This document shows, one piece after another, positions 3,513 through 29,818 of a stretch of 64,000 nucleotides of DNA. Made by a program: the position numbers and the translations under genes. How positions within the stretch are numbered: position 1 is the first letter of the stretch; the number at the start of each line of letters is the position of its first letter. Source of the stretch: a phage. The stretch is taken from sequence record QB031382.1; one strand, given 5' to 3'. The notes under the pieces were generated by a model. The model was not told where the DNA came from. It ran no database searches and was given only the letters and a program-made list of their open reading frames with translations.

Positions 3513-4277
3513 TTGAAATTCATCTACAAAGAACACTACCACAAAGGTGTTGTGTGGAGTCTATTTGACGGGTCTGGTGGTGCAGTTATTGACTGGGCAA
3601 AAGCTGGGTACCTGTGCCTGTGCTTTAATGCAGAAGGTGCTGACCACGGCAGTTATGCAGAGGTGATAACCGATCATCCAAATATTCACTATGTGGATTA
3701 TTGGATTGACCCATGGTTCCCTCAAGAAACTTTTTGCATGTATCCAGCTCCAGACTTTATTCTTGCATTTCCTCCGTGCACGCATTTAGCGGTATCAGGA
3801 GCTGCACACTTTAAGAAAAAGCTGGCTAAGGACCCACTGATCCAGATTAACGCTGTAAAGGATGCTCGGGTTGCAGAAGAGTTGGGAGAGATTTACGATT
3901 GCCCGTGGCATGTAGAGAATCCTGTGGGTGTTATGTCCACGCTGTGGCGCAAACCTGATTACCGTTTTCACCCTTCTGATTATGGCGGGTATTTACCGGA
4001 GGATGATGTAAACCCCTGGTTTCCTGAATTTATAGCTCCACGTGATGCCTATCCAAAAATAACTTGCGGCTGGATAGGTAATGGATTTATAATCCCGGTC
4101 ACAAAACCTGTCCCGCAAATAGTTGACGCGGTTAGCGGGTATTCCATGCAACACGCCAAGCTGGGGGGAAAGAGTGCAAGAACAAAGATGATTCGAAGCC
4201 TCACACCCCGTGGCTGGGCAAAAGCTGTATTCTTAGCAAACGAGCCTGCAGTAAGGAGCAGAATTAATGGGAAGTAA
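3513..4277 (+). CDS. C5-cytosine DNA methyltransferase-like protein (small)
   Basis: Motif I WSLFDGSGG, PC motif AFPPCTHLAVSGA, ENV-like HVENPVGV, motif X-like GNGFIIPV; TTG start after SD AGGAGA, since the tool start lies inside the terminator. Confidence 0.55.
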   Translation: MKFIYKEHYHKGVVWSLFDGSGGAVIDWAKAGYLCLCFNAEGADHGSYAEVITDHPNIHYVDYWIDPWFPQETFCMYPAPDFILAFPPCTHLAVSGAAHFKKKLAKDPLIQINAVKDARVAEELGEIYDCPWHVENPVGVMSTLWRKPDYRFHPSDYGGYLPEDDVNPWFPEFIAPRDAYPKITCGWIGNGFIIPVTKPVPQIVDAVSGYSMQHAKLGGKSARTKMIRSLTPRGWAKAVFLANEPAVRSRINGK

Positions 4278-6345
4278 ATTTATGGCATCTGCATACAACC
4301 GTTTCGGTGAGCCAAACCCGAAAGCAACTAAGTATAAAAGTGGGGGAAGTGTGAAACGAGACTATCGTGATGAAAAAGAAGTTGAAACTGTAGAGACTGT
4401 TTTAGAAAATACCAAAATTGTCCCCGTCCCACAACAAAATATCGGTCTGATGGCTGCACAATATTTTGGTGTGCGATCAGCATTATCCCAAGAAGATGGT
4501 GTGACAGTCACTGCAACATATTTCCCATATTACGACCGCTACGGAAATCTGTCCGGTTTCAAAAAGCGTGACTGGACGATTCCTAAAGAGCAAAGAGGCC
4601 ATTTCTCCGTTGTTGGCATAGTAAAGGCTAACTCTCAGATGTTTGGTCAAAAGCTGTGTGCATCTTCCAACAACCGTAAGCAGATTAACGTTTGTGAGGG
4701 AGAAGGTGATGTTATTGCAGCATGGCAGGCTGCATATCAGATACAAGTAAAAGGGATTCTCACCAACGCTAAAGCCCCGGCAAAGGTGAAACAGTGGGCT
4801 AAAGAGGTCCAGGACGGGATCGATGCAGTTATCAACGGTGGCGATCTGGCAGGAAAACCATGCCTGCCTTTTGTTGGAATTAACTGTGGATGTGCAAACG
4901 CAGTAGATACTTTTGCAAACAATGAGAAGTTTATCCGTAGCTATGGAACAGTTGTGCTGGCAATGGATAACGATGCAGCTAACGAGGTAGAGAAGCAAAA
5001 ACACGTCATTAAAGGTGTTGAGGCCACGCACAATATCGCAGCATTTTTGATGGCTGATAACGTTTACCACGTGGAATATCCTGGCGAGGTAAACGACCCT
5101 GATGGTGTAAAAGATATCCGTGACATGCTGAAGGCTAAAAAGCTGGAAGATATTGTAAACATGTTCCGGCATCCTGTTAAGTATGTGCCGGATGCTGTGT
5201 CGGATTTAGAAGACTTCTCTATCGAATCTTTGCGGAAAAAGACTTCCAACGGGGTAGATATCAGCGCAGAGTTCCCAAAACTGCAAAAAATGCTGAAAGG
5301 CTTGCACAAAGGGACACTCGTAATGCTTACAGGGCCATCAGGGGGCGGTAAAACAACTGTAGCTAAAAAACTGGAACATTGTATTGCAAGATACTTGATG
5401 GACCCGACATGCCCGAAGGCCGATGACTATGAAGAGGATGATCGTCTATGCATGATCCATCTTGAGGAGGACCCAGAGGAAGCAATTAACTCCTTGTATG
5501 CAAACCAGTTAGGGTTTGATGTTAAAGAGTTTGTTGAAGATCCTAGCCAGTTTTTAACTGATCAAGAACACGCAGAGATTCACCAATCATGGGCAAAAGC
5601 TGGAAAAATCAAAGTGTTCAAACATTTCGGATCTATTCCGGTGGACGAGTTGATTACCAAGCTTAAGCAAATGGTTTGCCTGTACCATTGCCGTTATATT
5701 GTGCTGGATCACCTGTCCATGGTAATTTCAGGGCTTAATGTTAAGGATGAGCGAAAAGAGCTGGACATGGCTATGACCCAACTGGCTGCGTTTTGTAAGC
5801 AGTTTAACGTGTTTATCCTAGTGATCGCTCACCTCAAACGTACAGAGATTGTGCCTCCTAAGGACAAGGATGGTAACCCGTTACCTTTCTGGTATCCTGT
5901 GCGAAAAGAGAATTTGCGAGGATCGGCTGGGCTTGAACAGTTGAGTTGGGTAGTCATAGGTGTTGAGGCTGAAGAAATGGTAGATCGTTCTCGTGGTCGT
6001 GTCCGTTTAGTAGGTCTTAAAAACCGTCCAGCAAAAACATTGGGTATTGCGGATACTTTGGTTATGGACCCACATACAGGTAAGTTCCATGATGCCAGTA
6101 ATTGGTACTGGGACAAAGAAATGCAGATGTTTACAGACGGAGAAGGTGGGGAGGTTGTTTGGAGACCTCAGGCCATGTTTGAGGACCAAGAGCATGCAGT
6201 TGTAGAAACACCTATGGGCAAGGTTGTAGCTGATAAGGTTGTAACTCCTACTATTAAGCCTGTTGACACGCAGGAAGACCTCCAGTACGATGATCCATCT
6301 TCTGATCCGGTCCCCGGTTTTGAAGATGATGAAACACCTTTTTAA
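4267..6345 (+). CDS. bifunctional DNA primase-helicase (TOPRIM + DnaB-like helicase)
   Basis: TOPRIM motifs CEGEGD and LAMDNDAANE; Walker A LTGPSGGGKTT; SD AAGGAG upstream. Confidence 0.8.
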   Translation: MGSKFMASAYNRFGEPNPKATKYKSGGSVKRDYRDEKEVETVETVLENTKIVPVPQQNIGLMAAQYFGVRSALSQEDGVTVTATYFPYYDRYGNLSGFKKRDWTIPKEQRGHFSVVGIVKANSQMFGQKLCASSNNRKQINVCEGEGDVIAAWQAAYQIQVKGILTNAKAPAKVKQWAKEVQDGIDAVINGGDLAGKPCLPFVGINCGCANAVDTFANNEKFIRSYGTVVLAMDNDAANEVEKQKHVIKGVEATHNIAAFLMADNVYHVEYPGEVNDPDGVKDIRDMLKAKKLEDIVNMFRHPVKYVPDAVSDLEDFSIESLRKKTSNGVDISAEFPKLQKMLKGLHKGTLVMLTGPSGGGKTTVAKKLEHCIARYLMDPTCPKADDYEEDDRLCMIHLEEDPEEAINSLYANQLGFDVKEFVEDPSQFLTDQEHAEIHQSWAKAGKIKVFKHFGSIPVDELITKLKQMVCLYHCRYIVLDHLSMVISGLNVKDERKELDMAMTQLAAFCKQFNVFILVIAHLKRTEIVPPKDKDGNPLPFWYPVRKENLRGSAGLEQLSWVVIGVEAEEMVDRSRGRVRLVGLKNRPAKTLGIADTLVMDPHTGKFHDASNWYWDKEMQMFTDGEGGEVVWRPQAMFEDQEHAVVETPMGKVVADKVVTPTIKPVDTQEDLQYDDPSSDPVPGFEDDETPF

Positions 6346-6403: not shown

Positions 6404-8827
6404 ATGAGCATGTGGTCGTTCGATTTTGAGTCATCCGGTTTGCTGGAAGACCCAGATCTTTATTATCACTGCGGTCTGTTTAAAGAGTTGAATAAGAACC
6501 GTTTTATGCTGTTCCTTCCTCTAAATGACCGCACACACTACTCCGAGGAGGATATAGAAAAGGCTAAGAACTTCATTCTGGCAAAGAAAACTCTTTATAA
6601 AGATTTTGAAGTTCGCATAGCAGATTTTTCGGAGTTGGAAGGTTGGCTTACAGGAAATTCTGACTGGTCACCAACAGCTTTGAACTGCCATAACTGCTAC
6701 AGTTATGACTTTATGCTGATGGAAAGATTATCCGGTATTCATTTTGATATGTTCCGTGATCCTAAATGCATGGGGACTATCAACGACCACCAGGTTAACC
6801 TGTTTGATACGTTGGCGATGAGCCGAATCTTATGGCCTGATCGCCCTTTACCAAAAGGTTGTCCTGACTCCGTATTCAACCCGGTTACTAAGAAAATGCA
6901 GCCTGTTGGTCCTCACGGCCTTATGGCATGGGGCTACGCCCTTGGTAACCAGAAAGTTCAAATTGATGACTGGCGCGATCTTCCGTTGTGGAAGTATGTG
7001 GATCGTGTATTCGAGGACGTTATCATCCAGGAGCTGCTCTGGAAAGAGCTGGTAGCGGAATCAAAAGGTGTATTCTACGGCAAATCTGACATGCAGAACT
7101 TTATGTACGATCCTGCCAAAGAGAAGCCGAAAGGGTTCAAGAAGATCACCTGGAAGAACGCATTGCGCCGGGGTATGCTGCAACACTTCCTGATGGAGCT
7201 GCAGGCCCGTCAGGGTGTGTATTTTGACATAGATGGGGCTATTGCTTTACGTGACCGTTGCGATGCGTGGATGAAAGAAATCGCTGATCGTGTTGAACCA
7301 CAACTACCTTTAAAAGAGCTGTCAATGTCTCAGCGGCCCAAGTTCCCTGAAAAGCCGTTTAACCAAGATGGGACAATCTCCAATAATGGTTGGAAATGGT
7401 TAAAAGATAAGCTTGGCTATCCTGTGGACATGAGCGCTTTAGAGTTCAAAGCCCCACCTAAGCGAGCATTTACCTCCACAGGGGATGTCAGTAAGATGGG
7501 GATAAAATGGTGTGAAGAGATGGGCTGTAAAGACCCTGATAAGATGGCTGATTTCTTGAGGGGCTATATTAAGGGCACTTCCACACCACAACCTTTACCT
7601 AAAGAGCTAATGGATCAGGCAATAAGTGATCTACAGCAGAAGCGAATGCCTGACTGCAAGATACCTATGAAAATCAGCAATCAGGACGACATTAAGCGAT
7701 ACCTGATTAGTGCTGGTTGGCTTCCGACAATGTGGAGAACTAAGGATGTAACTAAAGACAGCAAGAAGAAAGCTCTACCTGATGCAGATGTTGATGCACG
7801 AGTATATGCATATATGGACGAGCTTTTAGAGTCAGAGTATTGTGACCTGATTATCAACTTCTGGAACAAAACTGATGCTAAGTTCCAGACAACCGTGCAC
7901 AAGTTCCGAAGCTTTCCTAACTCCGAAAGGATTAAAAAGGAAGTATTCGGGAAAATACGTAGAAAAGCTAGGGCACTTATTACTTCTCCGCAACTGAAAG
8001 ATACGTTTGGACACCTATGCCCTAATCTTGAAAAATTGAACGGAGAGATGGCTAAAGATATCGTCTTGTGGTTATCATTGCGAAACCGCAGATCGGTACT
8101 TGATCCAATTAAGGAGGATAAGGTTGATACTGGTCTTCTTAATCACCCACGTTTGAAGATTGACCATAAGCTTCCTGCTAAAAGTTCTGGGTTAACAAAC
8201 ACTTCCCGACAGAAACACAGTATTTGTGCGAACATGCCTAAACCATCTCCTAAAGTGGTTATGGGTAAAGAGATGCGTAGTCTGTGGGGTGTTCCTCCGG
8301 GATACTTTGAGATCGGTATTGACGGGTCCAACTTAGAGCAGCTTATCGGGGCTTGGGGTGCCTTTGAGTTCGACAACGGCTTGTATTATGATGTTGTAAG
8401 TAACGGGGACGCACACCAAAACAATGCTGAGGCATATACAAAAGTAGCAGGCAGAGAGGTGTCTCGTAACGACGGTAAACCTATCACGTATGGGGTTATG
8501 TACGGGGCACAAAAAGATAAAGTTGCAGACATGCTGGATATCTCTCCAGAGTTGGGGCAAAGGGTAATCGATGCGCTTTGGGATGCCAACCCCGGTCTTA
8601 AGGGGCGTAAAGAGGATCTAGAGAAATTCTGGGAAGCAACAGGTAAGAAATTTATCTACTCTTTTGACGGTCATGCCATTTGGACCCGCTCTAAACACTC
8701 TTTGCTTAATGCATATCAGCAAAATGGCGGTGCCTCGTTGTGCGACTTGGTCGGAATCCTCATGCACCACCAAATGGTGAAGCGTGGATGGTATGATGAG
8801 GGTGTTCGTCGTATTATTTATTACCAT
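6404..8827 (+). CDS. DNA polymerase, family A, exon 1
   Basis: Exo I SFDFESSGL, motif A GIDGSNLEQL, motif B KPITYGVMYG; exon ends at the CAT (His) codon 8825-8827 before the intron. Confidence 0.85.
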
Positions 8828-9155
8828 AAATAACATTGTGGCTTCGTGCAGTGATGCACGTCGAAAACCTCTTTAATTGACGGGAAGGCTAAGTTGACTT
8901 TTACACCTAAACATGGTAAAAGCTCAATATGCTAATCCGCAGCGAAGCATCCGAGAGGATGAACGTTCAGAGACTATCGAAAGCATAGCTCCAACATAGT
9001 TTGGTGTGAAGAAGCGAGTAGAGTAGGCCAGCAAGTGCGGTCGAAATGAGAGGTGCCTTGGTAACAAGGCAGTGAGATAGTCCGATCCATACGGGAAACT
9101 GTATGGCTATGCACGTAATGGTGCGGGGTAGCTTAACGACCTACCTGAACTATTG
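8828..9155 (+). ncRNA. group I self-splicing intron (no ORF) in the DNA polymerase gene
   Basis: Core elements P AATTGACGGGAA (8875-8886), Q AATCCGCAGC (8934-8943), R GTTCAGAGACTA (8965-8976), S GAGATAGTCC (9074-9083); U before 5' splice site pairs with guide GUGG 8838-8841; G9155 precedes 3' splice site. Confidence 0.75.
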
Positions 9156-18060: not shown

Positions 18061-18102
18061 TCTCATTTAGAATTTTGAATGATAATCATTCTCGTTTGCA
18101 GA

Positions 18103-18131
18103 ATAACGGGCACCCCCGGTGATTGTCTCCC
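18103..18131. repeat. GC-rich 29-nt element, left copy of inverted pair
   Basis: ATAACGGGCACCCCCGGTGATTGTCTCCC; exact reverse complement at 26211-26239; degenerate direct copy near 18240-18275. Confidence 0.6.
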
Positions 18132-18640
18132 GGCCCCTACTGCCCCGGCTTGCTATTATAGTATCACACAGGACAAAGAAAGCAAGGAGTTTTTGCATAA
18201 ATTTTTAGACGATAATGATAATCGTTCTCATTTCATGCAGCGCCCATCCCCGGTGGTTGTCTCCCCCGTCACCGGTGCCTGCCGTCCTTTCGATATGTAT
18301 ATTGTGCCACCTGGCGGGGCCGCTGTCAACACTTTTCAAAAATTTTTTTCTAACCTGATGCACTAACCGCTGCAACCTGGCGGGGCCAGCCTGGCAGGAC
18401 CTAACTGACCAGGTGGGCCTATGCTATAGGATAGGTAACAATTGAAGAGGAGGTACAAAAAATGGAAGGTAATATGATCCCCTGGAAAATGTAGCTATTA
18501 ATGACGCTGAGGCTATCGCCCTGGTTGAAAAGGCTATGGCGGGAGCGTTGGAACATAAAGAAGAGTACGAAAAAATTATGGTTAACCTGGCAGGGTCGGC
18601 GGCTGAGGAATTTTGCCCAAAAAATAATTTTAACTAGTGG

Positions 18641-26675: not shown

Positions 26676-26939
26676 ATGAAACGCCTTGATCAGCTCAAAC
26701 TAGTTCAGTACATGGCCTACAAAGTTATTGAAGTCCAAAAAGGTAGTAAAAAGGAGGTTTGCGAGAAAGCGTATAAGATCTTTACTCGTAAAAAAGATGA
26801 TTGGATGTTACGCCAGACCAAAAAGGCTGATATCCTGGGGTACCTGGAAGAAGAGATCCGGCTTGAAGAGCAAGAAGAGATCCGCCGCAGTGAGGCAGAT
26901 TATCAGGCAGCTTGGGAAAGCTGGATGAGAAACAAATAA
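26676..26939 (+). CDS. hypothetical protein
   Basis: ATG after SD AAAGAGGAAA. Confidence 0.5.
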   Translation: MKRLDQLKLVQYMAYKVIEVQKGSKKEVCEKAYKIFTRKKDDWMLRQTKKADILGYLEEEIRLEEQEEIRRSEADYQAAWESWMRNK

Positions 26940-26951
26940 TAAACATTATCA

Positions 26952-26978
26952 AGGGGCTTAGGCCCCTTTCTTTTTGTT
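26952..26978 (+). terminator. intrinsic terminator ending the plus-strand block
   Basis: Hairpin AGGGGC-TTA-GGCCCCT followed by TTCTTTTTG. Confidence 0.6.
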
Positions 26979-27731
26979 TGCTCTTTTCCTACCATAAACG
27001 GCCCTACCTGGCAAGTGGAATAATTGACGAGCCATTAATCCCGCACACTGTACAAATATACATATAAAATAACTATTGCATAATCTTTCATCTTGTGGTA
27101 GCAGGGTCATTTTTACACGTTTTTCCTTCCAAAAATGCACGTAATGCAGCTATTGCACAAAATTTAACCTGATGCACATTTTCAGCATACTGTCAACAAT
27201 TAAAAACCCTTATAAATCATACACTTACACAAACCAAAAAGCGTGTCCTACGTGAAAAATCGGGTGTAACTATAGCCGACAGATCTCAGAATCCACGTAC
27301 GATCACCATTCTATAGCCTGCTAAGTATTTATTCCAACCACAGAATAACGGAATAGTCAATACCTGTACAAAATAATTATTCGTATAAACTGCATAACAT
27401 AAATTTTCTCATGTGTAAACATTTTTCGTAAACAGTCCGAAATTGTCACGATAGGTTACTATAATCAGAGAAATCTTTAGTCGTCTAATGTTTACTGCAC
27501 ATAACTATACTGACTGGAATCATTAGATGACTAAGAGAAAGATAAGAAATAGTTAACAATGTAATTGTTTTACCTGTAACAATAAGGCAACTATGCAAAC
27601 GAATGTCATGGCGCGACGGAGTCGCGACATAATATAAAAGCAGTAACCATCACCCCCGTGATAGTTTATCTGCAAACTATTGATCAGATCATAGTTGCCT
27701 TAGATTTAGTTAATCATGACATAATAAGCAA

Positions 27732-27759
27732 GGCAACTATAGATCTGATAATAGTTGCC
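27732..27759. repeat. perfect palindrome
   Basis: GGCAACTAT-AGATCTGAT-AATAGTTGCC; half-sites recur nearby. Confidence 0.55.
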
Positions 27760-27789
27760 CTGCTTTTATATTATGTCATATATTATTAA

Positions 27790-27850
27790 CCTGTTAATTG
27801 TCAGCTTATTGGCTGTTAGCTTGTCAATTGTTAACTTGTTAATTGTTATC
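27790..27850. repeat. four tandem 15-bp iteron-like repeats
   Basis: CTGTTAATTGTCAGC / TTATTGGCTGTTAGC / TTGTCAATTGTTAAC / TTGTTAATTGTTATC. Confidence 0.55.
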
Positions 27851-29482
27851 ATGCAAACGAATGTCATGGCTTATCATCTTTGTGTAAACTGTCAGGGTGT
27901 AGACTATTCAAGGTGTAAATTATTCAGATGCAAACTATCCAGGCGTAAACAGTCTATGCGGGAACAATCTGCACGTGAACAATGAAACATGAAATAATAA
28001 CAGTCGTTATTGTATCGAAAGTGTATAAGGTGTCAGATTATGGCATATTGTGTGACATTGTGTCAGACAAGTTTTTCTCCTCTTTGTCAAGTGCTGCATG
28101 TAAAATTTACAAACTGGTATGGTAGCATTTTTGCGGCCCTGTTTACATTCAGGAGTGTATGTATAACCCTTGTTGTGTGGGCGTTTAGACGTCTGGACGG
28201 TCAGAAGTCTGCAGGTTAATATCTAATCTATTGGTCGCTAACTATATCCCCACAAATAATAAGAAATGCAATTGTTATATGCGTAAACAGTAACTCATGT
28301 TATCAATCCCTGTATGTATCGCCAGTGGTGCGCATAATGGGTATTATGTTAAATTGCCCGTAATGATAACGATTCTCACAATGATAGGTATTCTCATTCA
28401 CCCGCCCAGGATAGGTTGCAAATGTTGTGCCACTGTGTGAACGGCCTCGCCTATTAATTTGCCTCACTGCCCCGATATTTGAGAATTATTATAAGAATGA
28501 GAAGTATTCCCATTTCGTCCGCCTGGCAGCACTCCTGTAGGACAAGCACAAAATCGTGGCATAACTGTACCTGTTCAGATATTTCTGGCTGACTCTTCAG
28601 GTCTGTGTGGGAAAAGCCAACCTCTCCGGCGGCGGGGAGTGGGTCAATTAAAAAATTTACGTGGTGTATGAAGCGCTCTTCAGGTAAGGCAGGTATTATG
28701 GGATGAATCACTCTTCAGGTGATGATATTTGTAGGTGTGATATTTGCTGGAAAGCCAGATATGACGGGACTCCCGGCGGGGCAGGGGTAGTACAGACAGG
28801 GAAAATGTGGAGAATGTGGTGGGTAAATTGATCAAGCAGGTAGAGTATGGAATATGTTACAGGTATGTTAAATATGGAGGTAAGATATTTGTAAGATTTG
28901 TGTGTAAAATCAAAGACTTAAGTAGTGTTGTGGTATTTTCTATAAATAATTCAAGTTTAATAGGGAATATTTGCCTCTATCCACTTTGTATGGTAACTAT
29001 ATTCTAATTGAATTGGTTTACAAGTGTATATAAAGTATACAAATTAAAGATACAAGAAACCCCCCTCCCCCTTCGGCTACCATTCACCTTTTCCTCTGAC
29101 TGGTACTTAAACACTTATTCAGACTCTTCAGGTTATCACTCATATATCATATGGCAGTGACTGGTGTCCTCCGGCCCCTCTTTCGTCACCCGTCCGCTTC
29201 GCCATGCTAATGCCATAGCTAACTGTTCGGTTGTTCACCCTGTTCACTCAGGTGTATCTCCATACCCCTTCAAACCGAAGAGAACAGAAAACCCGAATTA
29301 CTCGGTAAAAGAAAAGAGAAGAACTTAATTTTATCAGGATAGGCAAGAATGTCAAGGCATGACTGCTCACTAAACAAGCAAACAGTCATGTGTGGGAGGT
29401 AAGTGATTGTGGTGGTAGGAAATTTAGTTGAAAGATGTGTTATAGGTGCTTCCAGCACTTTAGCCTGGCAGCTAATTGTGTG

Positions 29483-29698
29483 TCAGTCCAGCGGTTCATC
29501 CTCTACTTCACTGAAATCAATGTTCAGGGTCTCTTCCCAACCATCGATCTCAGCACAAGAGTGGAGTTCTTTAGGGTTTACTCCCAAAGCCTCAGCAACA
29601 GAGTCTATATTTAACACCTCTGGCAGGTATGATTCATCGAATTCAAGGTAAATCAGGCCACGAGTGTTGTCAGCTCCACCAAATATTTCTATCTTCAT
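29483..29698 (-). CDS. hypothetical acidic protein
   Basis: Tool ORF; last gene of minus-strand block. Confidence 0.4.
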   Translation of the reverse strand: MKIEIFGGADNTRGLIYLEFDESYLPEVLNIDSVAEALGVNPKELHSCAEIDGWEETLNIDFSEVEDEPLD

Positions 29699-29818
29699 AA
29701 AATCTCCTCTGGAAATGAGAGTGTGAACAGGGTTATACGTTCCAATGCGCAGGAATTTATATACGTTTGCCTCTTCAGGCCATGCTTTAGCATGATAAAC
29801 TTATGTGGGCTCGGTGCT

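Follow-up and report, generated by a model that had tools for sequence, protein, structure and literature searches.

An intergenic gap in an rV5-like Escherichia coli phage as the probable terminal region of a genome with short direct terminal repeats

The window analysed here, a stretch of 64,000 nucleotides of phage DNA (sequence record QB031382.1), derives from an rV5-like Escherichia coli myophage of the genus Vequintavirus, as assigned by matching phage records. Within the window, a plus-strand gene block that ends at 26939 and a minus-strand block whose last gene ends at 29483 converge on a gap of about 2.5 kb that is devoid of genes and rich in repeats. This gap probably represents the terminal (concatemer-junction) region of a phage with a short direct terminal repeat (DTR), made up of a 458-bp DTR at 28066-28523 and of the cis elements that flank it. 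The genome would thus be cut between nucleotides 28065 and 28066 on one side and between 28523 and 28524 on the other. A first-pass annotation, made from the sequence alone, had put forward four functions for the gap, namely a packaging site, a transcription terminus, a replication origin and a source of non-coding RNA (ncRNA), with comparison to related genomes as one of the checks. Such a comparison supports the first of these, as the termini of the phages Gotham, HdK5, EdH4 and KPP-1 fall at conserved nucleotides of the region. It also shows that the repeats of the gap recur in all relatives and that both the DTR edges and a large palindrome are conserved.

When searched against phage records, the segment 26900-29600 matches 122 of them (85-95% identity), 113 at 90-95% and none at 99% or more. 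A conservation profile, obtained by aligning 18 relatives, divides the gap into six modules, A to F (Table 1). In this profile, the palindrome (module B), the DTR and module F are conserved as well as the flanking genes or better. G+C content ranges from 0.33 to 0.38 across 27100-28300, and complementarity between any module of the gap and the rest of the window is limited to chance-level words of 11-15 nt.

Table 1. Features of the gap and of its borders, in window coordinates.
Feature	Position	Strand	Remarks
Intrinsic terminator, left gap border	26951..26968	+	Stem AAGGGGC-TTAG-GCCCCTT, then a T run; the Murica record annotates a terminator here
Module A, AT-rich spacer	26980-27582		Moderately conserved (81-96%); C-rich on the plus strand
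Module B, compound palindrome	27583-27777		95-100% conserved
20-mer ATGCAAACGAATGTCATGGC, copy 1	27593..27612	+	From the repeat search
Inner hairpins associated with the palindrome	27612-27626, 27645-27666, 27726-27765		From the repeat search
Module C, repeat arrays	27778-28065		Hypervariable, 23-57% identity, many gaps
Array 1, TTAATTG type	27790..27849	+	Four tandem 15-bp units (CCTGTTAATTGTCAG and variants); the 'iterons' of the first-pass annotation
20-mer ATGCAAACGAATGTCATGGC, copy 2, between arrays 1 and 2	27851..27870	+	Invariant in 19/19 genomes except for one G/T position
Array 2, GTAAAC type	27882..27988	+	Seven tandem 15-16-bp units, core RYGTRAAC; found with TRF
Phased RTGTCA motifs	28030..28065	+	10-11-bp period in relatives; final copy ends at the terminus (TGTCA, cut, GACAAG)
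Module D, direct terminal repeat (DTR), 458 bp	28066..28523		85-99% conserved; placed by homology to the repeats at the Gotham and HdK5 record ends
Two adjacent 7-1-7 palindromes (TGATAACGATTCTCA, TGATAGGTATTCTCA), Fur-box-like	28364..28396		Inside the DTR; third copy at 28480-28494
Module E	28524-29060		77-98% conserved; G-rich on the plus strand
(A/G)CTCTTCAGGT, three copies	28592..28720	+	At 28592, 28675 and 28710; 68-197 bp outside the right DTR edge, in module E
AT-rich stretch, 179 bp, 25% G+C	28880..29058		Immediately downstream of the G run of element F
Module F	29060-29450		99-100% conserved (adjoining gene ~95%)
Element F, ~260 nt, candidate ncRNA or transcribed cis element	29060..29321	-	Near-invariant; ends in GGGGGAGGGGGG; read toward the DTR
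Sigma-70 promoter, TTGACA-16-(TG)TAAAAT	29328..29355	-	11/12 matches; aimed at the DTR
Inverted repeat CATGACTG-N17-CAGTCATG	29358..29390		Directly upstream of the -35 hexamer

A direct terminal repeat with conserved edges

The position of the DTR is provided by relatives whose records carry a repeat at both ends. The Gotham record annotates identical repeat regions at 1-459 and 136567-137025, while in HdK5 the first 459 bp equal the last 459 bp, and these end repeats map to 28066-28523 of the window at 95.6% identity. In the respective reports, the terminal repeat of Gotham is given as 459 bp and the terminal redundancies of HdK5 and EdH4 as 458 bp (Korf 2019), so that unique starts with exact repeats of 458/459 bp have been reported by two groups. 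The two edges also emerge from the way in which other genomes were deposited. Indeed, the ECP2303 record breaks at 28066, the bov10K2 and bov22_2 records break at about 28523, and several further genomes are opened at or near the gap. In all 19 aligned genomes, the segment before the DTR ends in TGTCA and the DTR starts directly after it with GACAAGTTTTTCTCC. A single copy of the DTR is present in the window and no second copy was found there, as expected of a circularised or collapsed assembly.

A similar situation is present in a second genus. The Klebsiella phage KPP-1 (Mydovirus) has a 514-bp DTR that was mapped by a twofold step in coverage and by PhageTerm, and it was classed as T7-type. 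This repeat lies within the equivalent gene-poor gap between converging blocks. In the inverted orientation of the KPP-1 record, its right edge reads GTCCGTC followed across the cut by TAGCACCGC, compared with GTCCGCC followed by TGGCAGCAC here, and the left edge lies at the same distance before a TTCTC..TTGTCAAG motif in both phages. Over their whole length the two DTRs are 52% identical (z 5.3 against shuffles), and a 17-mer, GCTGACwCTTCAGGTC, is common to the window and KPP-1. Judged by these alignments, both edges of the DTR are homologous to those of the independently mapped KPP-1 repeat.

The phi92-like phage BME3 likewise has a DTR, of 342 bp, and a compound palindrome, of 147 bp, in a gene-free terminal gap. 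Its record (PP239276) contains near its end a unit of 861 bp, made of DTR, spacer and palindrome, that is present twice (1297-1596 against 2158-2457 of locus L031; 1-771 of locus L030). The feature annotated as 'DTR-L' is internal and lies 73 nt away from the end of the record, which points either to a longer repeat than reported or to an assembly artefact. Owing to the duplicated unit and to edges that align poorly, BME3 was rejected as a third lineage for edge homology. It is used here for the presence of a DTR and a palindrome in a gene-free gap alone, with distances set aside.

Repeat arrays at the left edge

The DNA leading up to the left cut site is organised as array 1, the invariant 20-mer, array 2 and a phased RTGTCA array that runs up to the cut. 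The four tandem 15-bp repeats and the two copies of ATGCAAACGAATGTCATGGC that the first-pass annotation had described are present as it stated, while array 2, the phased TGTCA array, the copies of ACTCTTCAGGT, the minus-strand promoter and the DTR itself had been overlooked. The copy number of array 1 varies from 0 to 5 across relatives, in a region that is 26-57% conserved with many gaps, and that of array 2 (units starting at 27882, 27897, 27913, 27928, 27943, 27958 and 27973) from about 3 in LL12 to about 12 in rV5. Comparison of module C among relatives thus indicates that the motifs are retained while their copy number drifts.

The clustering of these motifs is local, as neither GYRWAAAC (25 occurrences versus 19 expected) nor RTGTCA (73 versus 82 expected) is significantly enriched across the window. 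Beyond the right DTR edge, ACTCTTCAGGT has four copies on one and the same strand (28592-29133), which account for four of its five hits in the 64-kb window, where 1.26 would be expected. Three of them are the (A/G)CTCTTCAGGT copies of module E, and the fourth is found at 29123-29133, inside element F. Since the repeats recur in all relatives and none of 200 shuffles folds as well as the palindrome described below, the repeats and the palindrome of the gap exceed what chance would produce.

A compound palindrome outside the left edge

Module B is dominated by a compound palindrome of about 150 bp (27626-27777), whose end lies 288 bp from the left DTR edge. Inside a perfect outer inverted repeat of 18 bp (27626-27643 and 27760-27777) lie hairpins together with long imperfect arms. 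The module contains four copies of AAGGCAACTAT in alternating orientation and a cluster of three GATC sites. Of the two smaller structures previously noted, the short hairpin is confirmed as CGCGAC-GGA-GTCGCG, whereas the supposed perfect palindrome of 28 bp at 27732-27759 has arms of 9 bp, or of 15 bp if one mismatch is allowed, that flank a non-palindromic spacer of 10 nt, and it represents one limb of the compound structure.

The palindrome folds far better than shuffled sequence, with z -9.4 as DNA and -8.5 and -10.2 as RNA from either strand (0/200 shuffles equal), bearing in mind that a DNA palindrome scores in this way on either strand. Across 21 variants the arms are invariant and changes are confined to the loops, so that covariation cannot be scored. 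In five phages (rV5, phita32, LL12, typing phage 5 and A112b), a 33-bp insertion, TAAACTCAGGCATAGCCTTCGTCTCGAGGATGT, is located exactly at the apex (27703-27730) and accounts for the class of about 82% identity in the BLAST table. Sensitive blastn searches for module B outside the genus returned no homologues, as all hits were among about 120 Vequintavirus records. KPP-1 has a perfect 21-bp outer repeat with hairpins inside it (z -9.6), located 308 bp beyond the same DTR edge, and this element has no detectable sequence similarity to module B despite the like structure. The limbs of the palindrome resemble intrinsic terminators on both strands, as in the annotations of Murica and Alma. Together with the terminator at the left border and the convergence of the two gene blocks, this makes the gap a transcription terminus in the simple sense of the term, as had been proposed.

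A possible route from concatemer to genome end

By analogy with other phages, the elements of the gap can be arranged in a plausible sequence of events. In the replicating concatemer, the DTR would be present once between its cis-acting flanks. Terminase would then cut at both of its edges and the DTR would be copied, so that the packaged genome would have one repeat at each end, as in T7-type packaging. The TGTCA array, the GTAAAC array and the CTCTTCAGGT sites may serve as recognition or positioning sites for the packaging machinery. The palindrome may form a hairpin or cruciform that serves repeat duplication or replication, as suggested by analogy with T7, and its limbs could double as terminators that insulate the junction. 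Finally, transcription from the promoter at 29355 toward the junction may yield an RNA of about 260 nt, or may itself aid junction processing or priming.

The comparison with T7 was checked on its sequence. In T7, about 12 CCTAAAG units with a 13-bp period follow the 160-bp repeat (nt 175-341), the right repeat has a looser array in front of it, and the promoters A0 (leftward) and phiOR are aimed at the ends. The two systems share a short exact DTR with fixed ends, directly flanking arrays of short repeats, host-type or phage promoters aimed at the ends, and the need to duplicate the repeat during processing. Indeed, the T7 model holds that the repeat must be duplicated in concatemer processing, and a hairpin intermediate is reported at second hand. 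The differences are also clear. The source phage is a 136-kb myovirus without a phage RNA polymerase, its DTR measures 458 bp rather than 160 bp, and, in the absence of sequence similarity, the resemblance between arrays is anatomical only. Furthermore, the units here are of 15-16 bp and are accompanied by a phased TGTCA array, the palindrome of about 150 bp far exceeds any inverted repeat found at the T7 ends, and genes on both sides are transcribed toward the ends.

Element F and its promoter

The right half of the gap contains a near-invariant segment, element F, downstream of a near-consensus promoter. Element F is 99-100% identical in 17 relatives, and the block that holds it (29050-29460) is 95.4-99.5% identical in 118 records versus 86-93% for the gap as a whole. 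In the most divergent relatives (L028 and L029/L011), the neighbouring gene is about 86% identical and element F about 98%. Both promoter hexamers and the TG are kept in these genomes while the spacer and the upstream DNA diverge (~82%), and conservation stops right after the G run (GGGGGAGGGGGG). Across the aligned genomes, this is the pattern that would be expected of a transcribed functional element. Divergent loci retrieved via the neighbouring gene, three from IMG/VR and five from metagenomes, served to set the boundaries of element F, and they were too alike for covariation analysis. The inverted repeat upstream of the promoter is kept in most relatives, with a single substitution in one arm in L029/L011, and may be an operator or may terminate the last minus-strand gene.

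The C-rich tract that had been noticed near 29065 is indeed there, as AAACCCCCCTCCCCCTTCGG at 29057-29076 of the plus strand, and corresponds to the G-run end of element F. Homopolymer lengths in this C6-T-C5 tract (29059-29076) vary among genomes from C5 to C7 on either side, by slippage or sequencing error.

As for the proposed ncRNA source, the gap offers one candidate, the minus-strand transcript from 29321 to 29060, whose fold is no better than that of shuffles (z -1.0 for the minus strand, +0.9 for the plus strand). An alifold analysis of 19 distinct variants, among which there is little variation, returned no compensatory changes, about six compatible one-sided substitutions and about three that break pairs. 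A strongly structured RNA is disfavoured by this shuffle-like fold and the lack of compensatory pairs. Even so, element F may be a free-standing ncRNA gene that represents the main function of the right half of the gap, a reading that is compatible with a terminus and whose chances we put slightly below even. The promoter speaks for it, as do the roughly 260 nt conserved while the surrounding DNA diverges and a pyrimidine-rich 5' end that can pair with the purine/G-rich 3' end, leaving the sole variable patch unpaired. Set against this are the pair-breaking substitutions and the failure of Rfam 15 covariance models, that of the phi29 packaging RNA (pRNA) included, to match anything in 26800-29700 at E<=5. 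In addition, the 3' end is without a clear intrinsic terminator, sensitive blastn found no homologues outside the genus (only about 120 Vequintavirus records) and 5,426 E. coli genomes gave no match. Moreover, such uniform conservation could also stem from a site acting at the DNA level or from a recombinational sweep in recent times. The literature was searched for transcriptomes of this subfamily, and nothing relevant was found.

A bolder proposal, to which we give little chance, is that element F is an undescribed RNA made from a strong host-type promoter at the extremity of the genome, read toward the terminus and acting on the genome end in cis or in trans. It could do so as a primer or R-loop RNA, or as a cofactor of packaging or junction processing together with the palindrome. 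The G5AG6 run followed by DNA of 25% G+C is the feature that would suit an R-loop. The gene for the phi29 pRNA, a small RNA, occupies the very tip of a linear genome, and a strong promoter of host type drives its transcription toward the terminus. Element F shares this position and orientation, in a likeness that is positional only. Unlike the pRNA, it has no Rfam match or supported structure, and phi29 belongs to another lineage with another packaging chemistry, with protein-primed ends instead of terminase and a DTR. If the proposal were true, element F would be the DTR-phage counterpart of the phi29 pRNA or of transcription-coupled junction processing in T7.

Alternative readings of the gap

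Some points weigh against the gap being the terminal region of a short-DTR phage. The termini of the source phage itself are placed by homology, and the terminase gene lies outside the 64-kb window. The roles suggested for arrays, palindrome and promoter are drawn by analogy, and the statement on the T7 hairpin comes at second hand from the discussion of another paper. The annotated DTR edges of BME3, with its duplicated unit, do not align cleanly with those of the window. Lastly, two PhageTerm-based reports class Vequintavirus genomes (bov10K2 and BpE1AUH) as circularly permuted. Such calls, made for several genomes of the genus ('circular permutated' or headful), would suit headful packaging from a pac site in the gap, with permuted and terminally redundant ends. 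In addition, the GATC-containing TGATCAGATCA inside the palindrome resembles the pac-site hexamers of P1. Permuted ends are, however, hard to reconcile with exact repeats and unique starts reported by two groups, with records whose two ends are identical, or with the coverage step and T7-type call of KPP-1 and edges conserved to the nucleotide. The revised bov10K2 and bov22_2 records themselves start at a DTR edge, contrary to the permuted class. Because the exact repeats are concordant, the permutation reports were given less weight, and headful packaging is regarded as very improbable. Even less credit is given to the notion that the gap is a mere transcriptional buffer between converging early-gene blocks, with terminators and drifting junk and no role in packaging. 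It would account for the convergence, for the border terminator, for the terminator-like hairpins of the palindrome on both strands and for the hypervariable arrays. It would leave unexplained why the mapped termini of relatives fall in the gap, why modules B, D and F are conserved at least as well as the flanking genes, and why the same layout is found in another genus despite diverged sequence.

A replication origin in the gap or in part of it, either of the iteron type (the arrays) or primed from the promoter (transcript F as an R-loop primer), is unlikely. Tandem arrays, low-GC DNA and a large palindrome with three GATC sites are all present, and the phage encodes a T7-like primase-helicase and a family A polymerase. 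The order of promoter, 260 nt, GGGGGAGGGGGG and 179 bp at 25% G+C resembles the primer-RNA origins of ColE1, T4 (oriF/oriG) and the mitochondrial CSBII. Given this resemblance of the G run and the adjoining low-GC DNA, a promoter-primed origin is kept as a rival. The iteron version fares worse. In genomes of about 90% identity, array copies range from 0 to 5 and from about 3 to 12, a pattern that differs from that of iterons co-evolving with a Rep protein. Furthermore, no initiator gene or conserved open reading frame (ORF) lies adjacent, and the arrays abut the terminus as those of T7 do. Thus, of the hallmarks of an iteron origin, stable iterons and an adjacent initiator gene are missing, and AT-rich DNA, which is present, is not origin-specific. 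For the same reasons, the tandem arrays behind the earlier 'iteron-like' proposal do exist, but an iteron origin is the weakest of the four functions proposed for the gap. A change of skew at the gap was observed by the authors of the rV5 paper (2013), who credit it to the switch in transcription direction. All in all, the assignment of the gap to the terminal region of a short-DTR phage is retained.

Coding content and neighbouring genes

The absence of a convincing ORF, as first claimed, agrees with both the relatives and the literature. Where the gap is variable, none of the ORFs of 30 aa or more is intact across 17-18 relatives, and the few that remain open all lie in near-invariant DNA and lack a Shine-Dalgarno sequence. 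Related records do call small ORFs in the gap, which are mutually inconsistent. The rV5 paper states 'no observable ORFs' for 104013-106618 and draws a 'non-coding' box without assigning a function. A protein-coding gap was therefore rejected, as the ORFs of its variable parts are disrupted in relatives.

The last plus-strand gene (26676-26939, 87 aa) is labelled 'DNA translocase FtsK' in APCEc02, pangalan, nomo and nimi and 'hypothetical' in others. Since an 87-aa protein is far too small for FtsK, the label looks like an annotation passed from record to record. Another peculiarity of the records is that 19 'Campylobacter phage' entries (many UNVERIFIED, host C. jejuni) share 83-93% identity with this locus of an E. 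coli Vequintavirus, which makes their host assignment look doubtful.

Outside the gap, Rfam 15 at the gathering threshold gives a single match in the whole window, a group I intron (RF00028, 75.6 bits, full-length model) at 8818-9105 on the plus strand, and none in the gap. The intron starts where the ORF of the family A DNA polymerase (6404-8833) stops, so that the polymerase gene appears to be split by it. ARAGORN detected neither tRNA nor tmRNA genes in the window.

Fur-box-like palindromes and a dispersed element family

Palindromes of the 7-1-7 type (TGATAAT-N-ATTATCA), which resemble Fur boxes, are enriched in the window (23 versus 5.7 expected), in the KPP-1 locus (8 versus 0.7) and in the BME3 locus (9 versus 0.8), and they cluster in or beside the DTR in all three lineages. 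They are found at 28364, 28382, 28480, 26937, 27837, 18080, 18210 and 18216 of the window, at 4216-4975 of locus L013 and at 55, 250, 1161 and 1219 of locus L030. Core matches are 11-12/14 for the window sites and 13-14/14 for the KPP-1 and BME3 copies. Relative to the Fur box (E. coli GATAATGATAATCATTATC; 7-1-7 model; consensus from PMC7536154), BME3 has a perfect 7-1-7 copy and, against the Vibrio consensus, a match at 18/19 positions, whereas the window copies match at 14-15/19 and have an ATTCTCA half-site, and the motif also occurs elsewhere in the source phage genome (18080-18230). These palindromes are possible binding sites for host Fur or for a phage protein of similar specificity.

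The second location, 18063-18330, comprises two similar units, each with a 7-1-7 box and, after it, a C-rich segment of the form CCCCGG(T)G..TTGTCTCCC, which overlap a putative ORF of 95 aa (18079-18366). The units resemble sequences of the DTR (28360-28410) and, when reversed, the G-rich CCCGGCGGGGCAGGGG pieces of module E. Collectively, by their similarity, the units and these pieces of the DTR and module E look like a dispersed element family.

Significance

For the genus, publications already cover the presence of the repeat, its length and the lack of genes, whereas the exact mapping, the conservation of edges and palindrome across genera, the nature of the arrays and element F seem not to have been described before. 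In particular, the papers on rV5, Gotham, HdK5 and EdH4, which concern the same locus at about 90-95% identity, give in their available text the repeat length or the absence of ORFs and leave arrays, palindrome, promoter and element F undiscussed. All four features are likewise unannotated in the rV5 RefSeq and Gotham records.

Vequintaviruses rank among the most frequently isolated phages of E. coli and form part of cocktails for therapy and biocontrol. Most deposited genomes are arbitrarily opened, and the gap is left blank or given spurious small ORFs. True ends at 28066 and 28523 would allow consistent orientation and annotation of these genomes and would also show phage engineers what DNA packaging must retain. 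Even for T7, the recognition and duplication of short DTRs are only partly understood. With cuts conserved to the nucleotide, arrays of naturally variable copy number and a palindrome that two genera keep at about 300 bp from the cut, these phages provide a natural series of variants for testing, while the promoter-driven conserved element represents a concrete candidate for a phage ncRNA.

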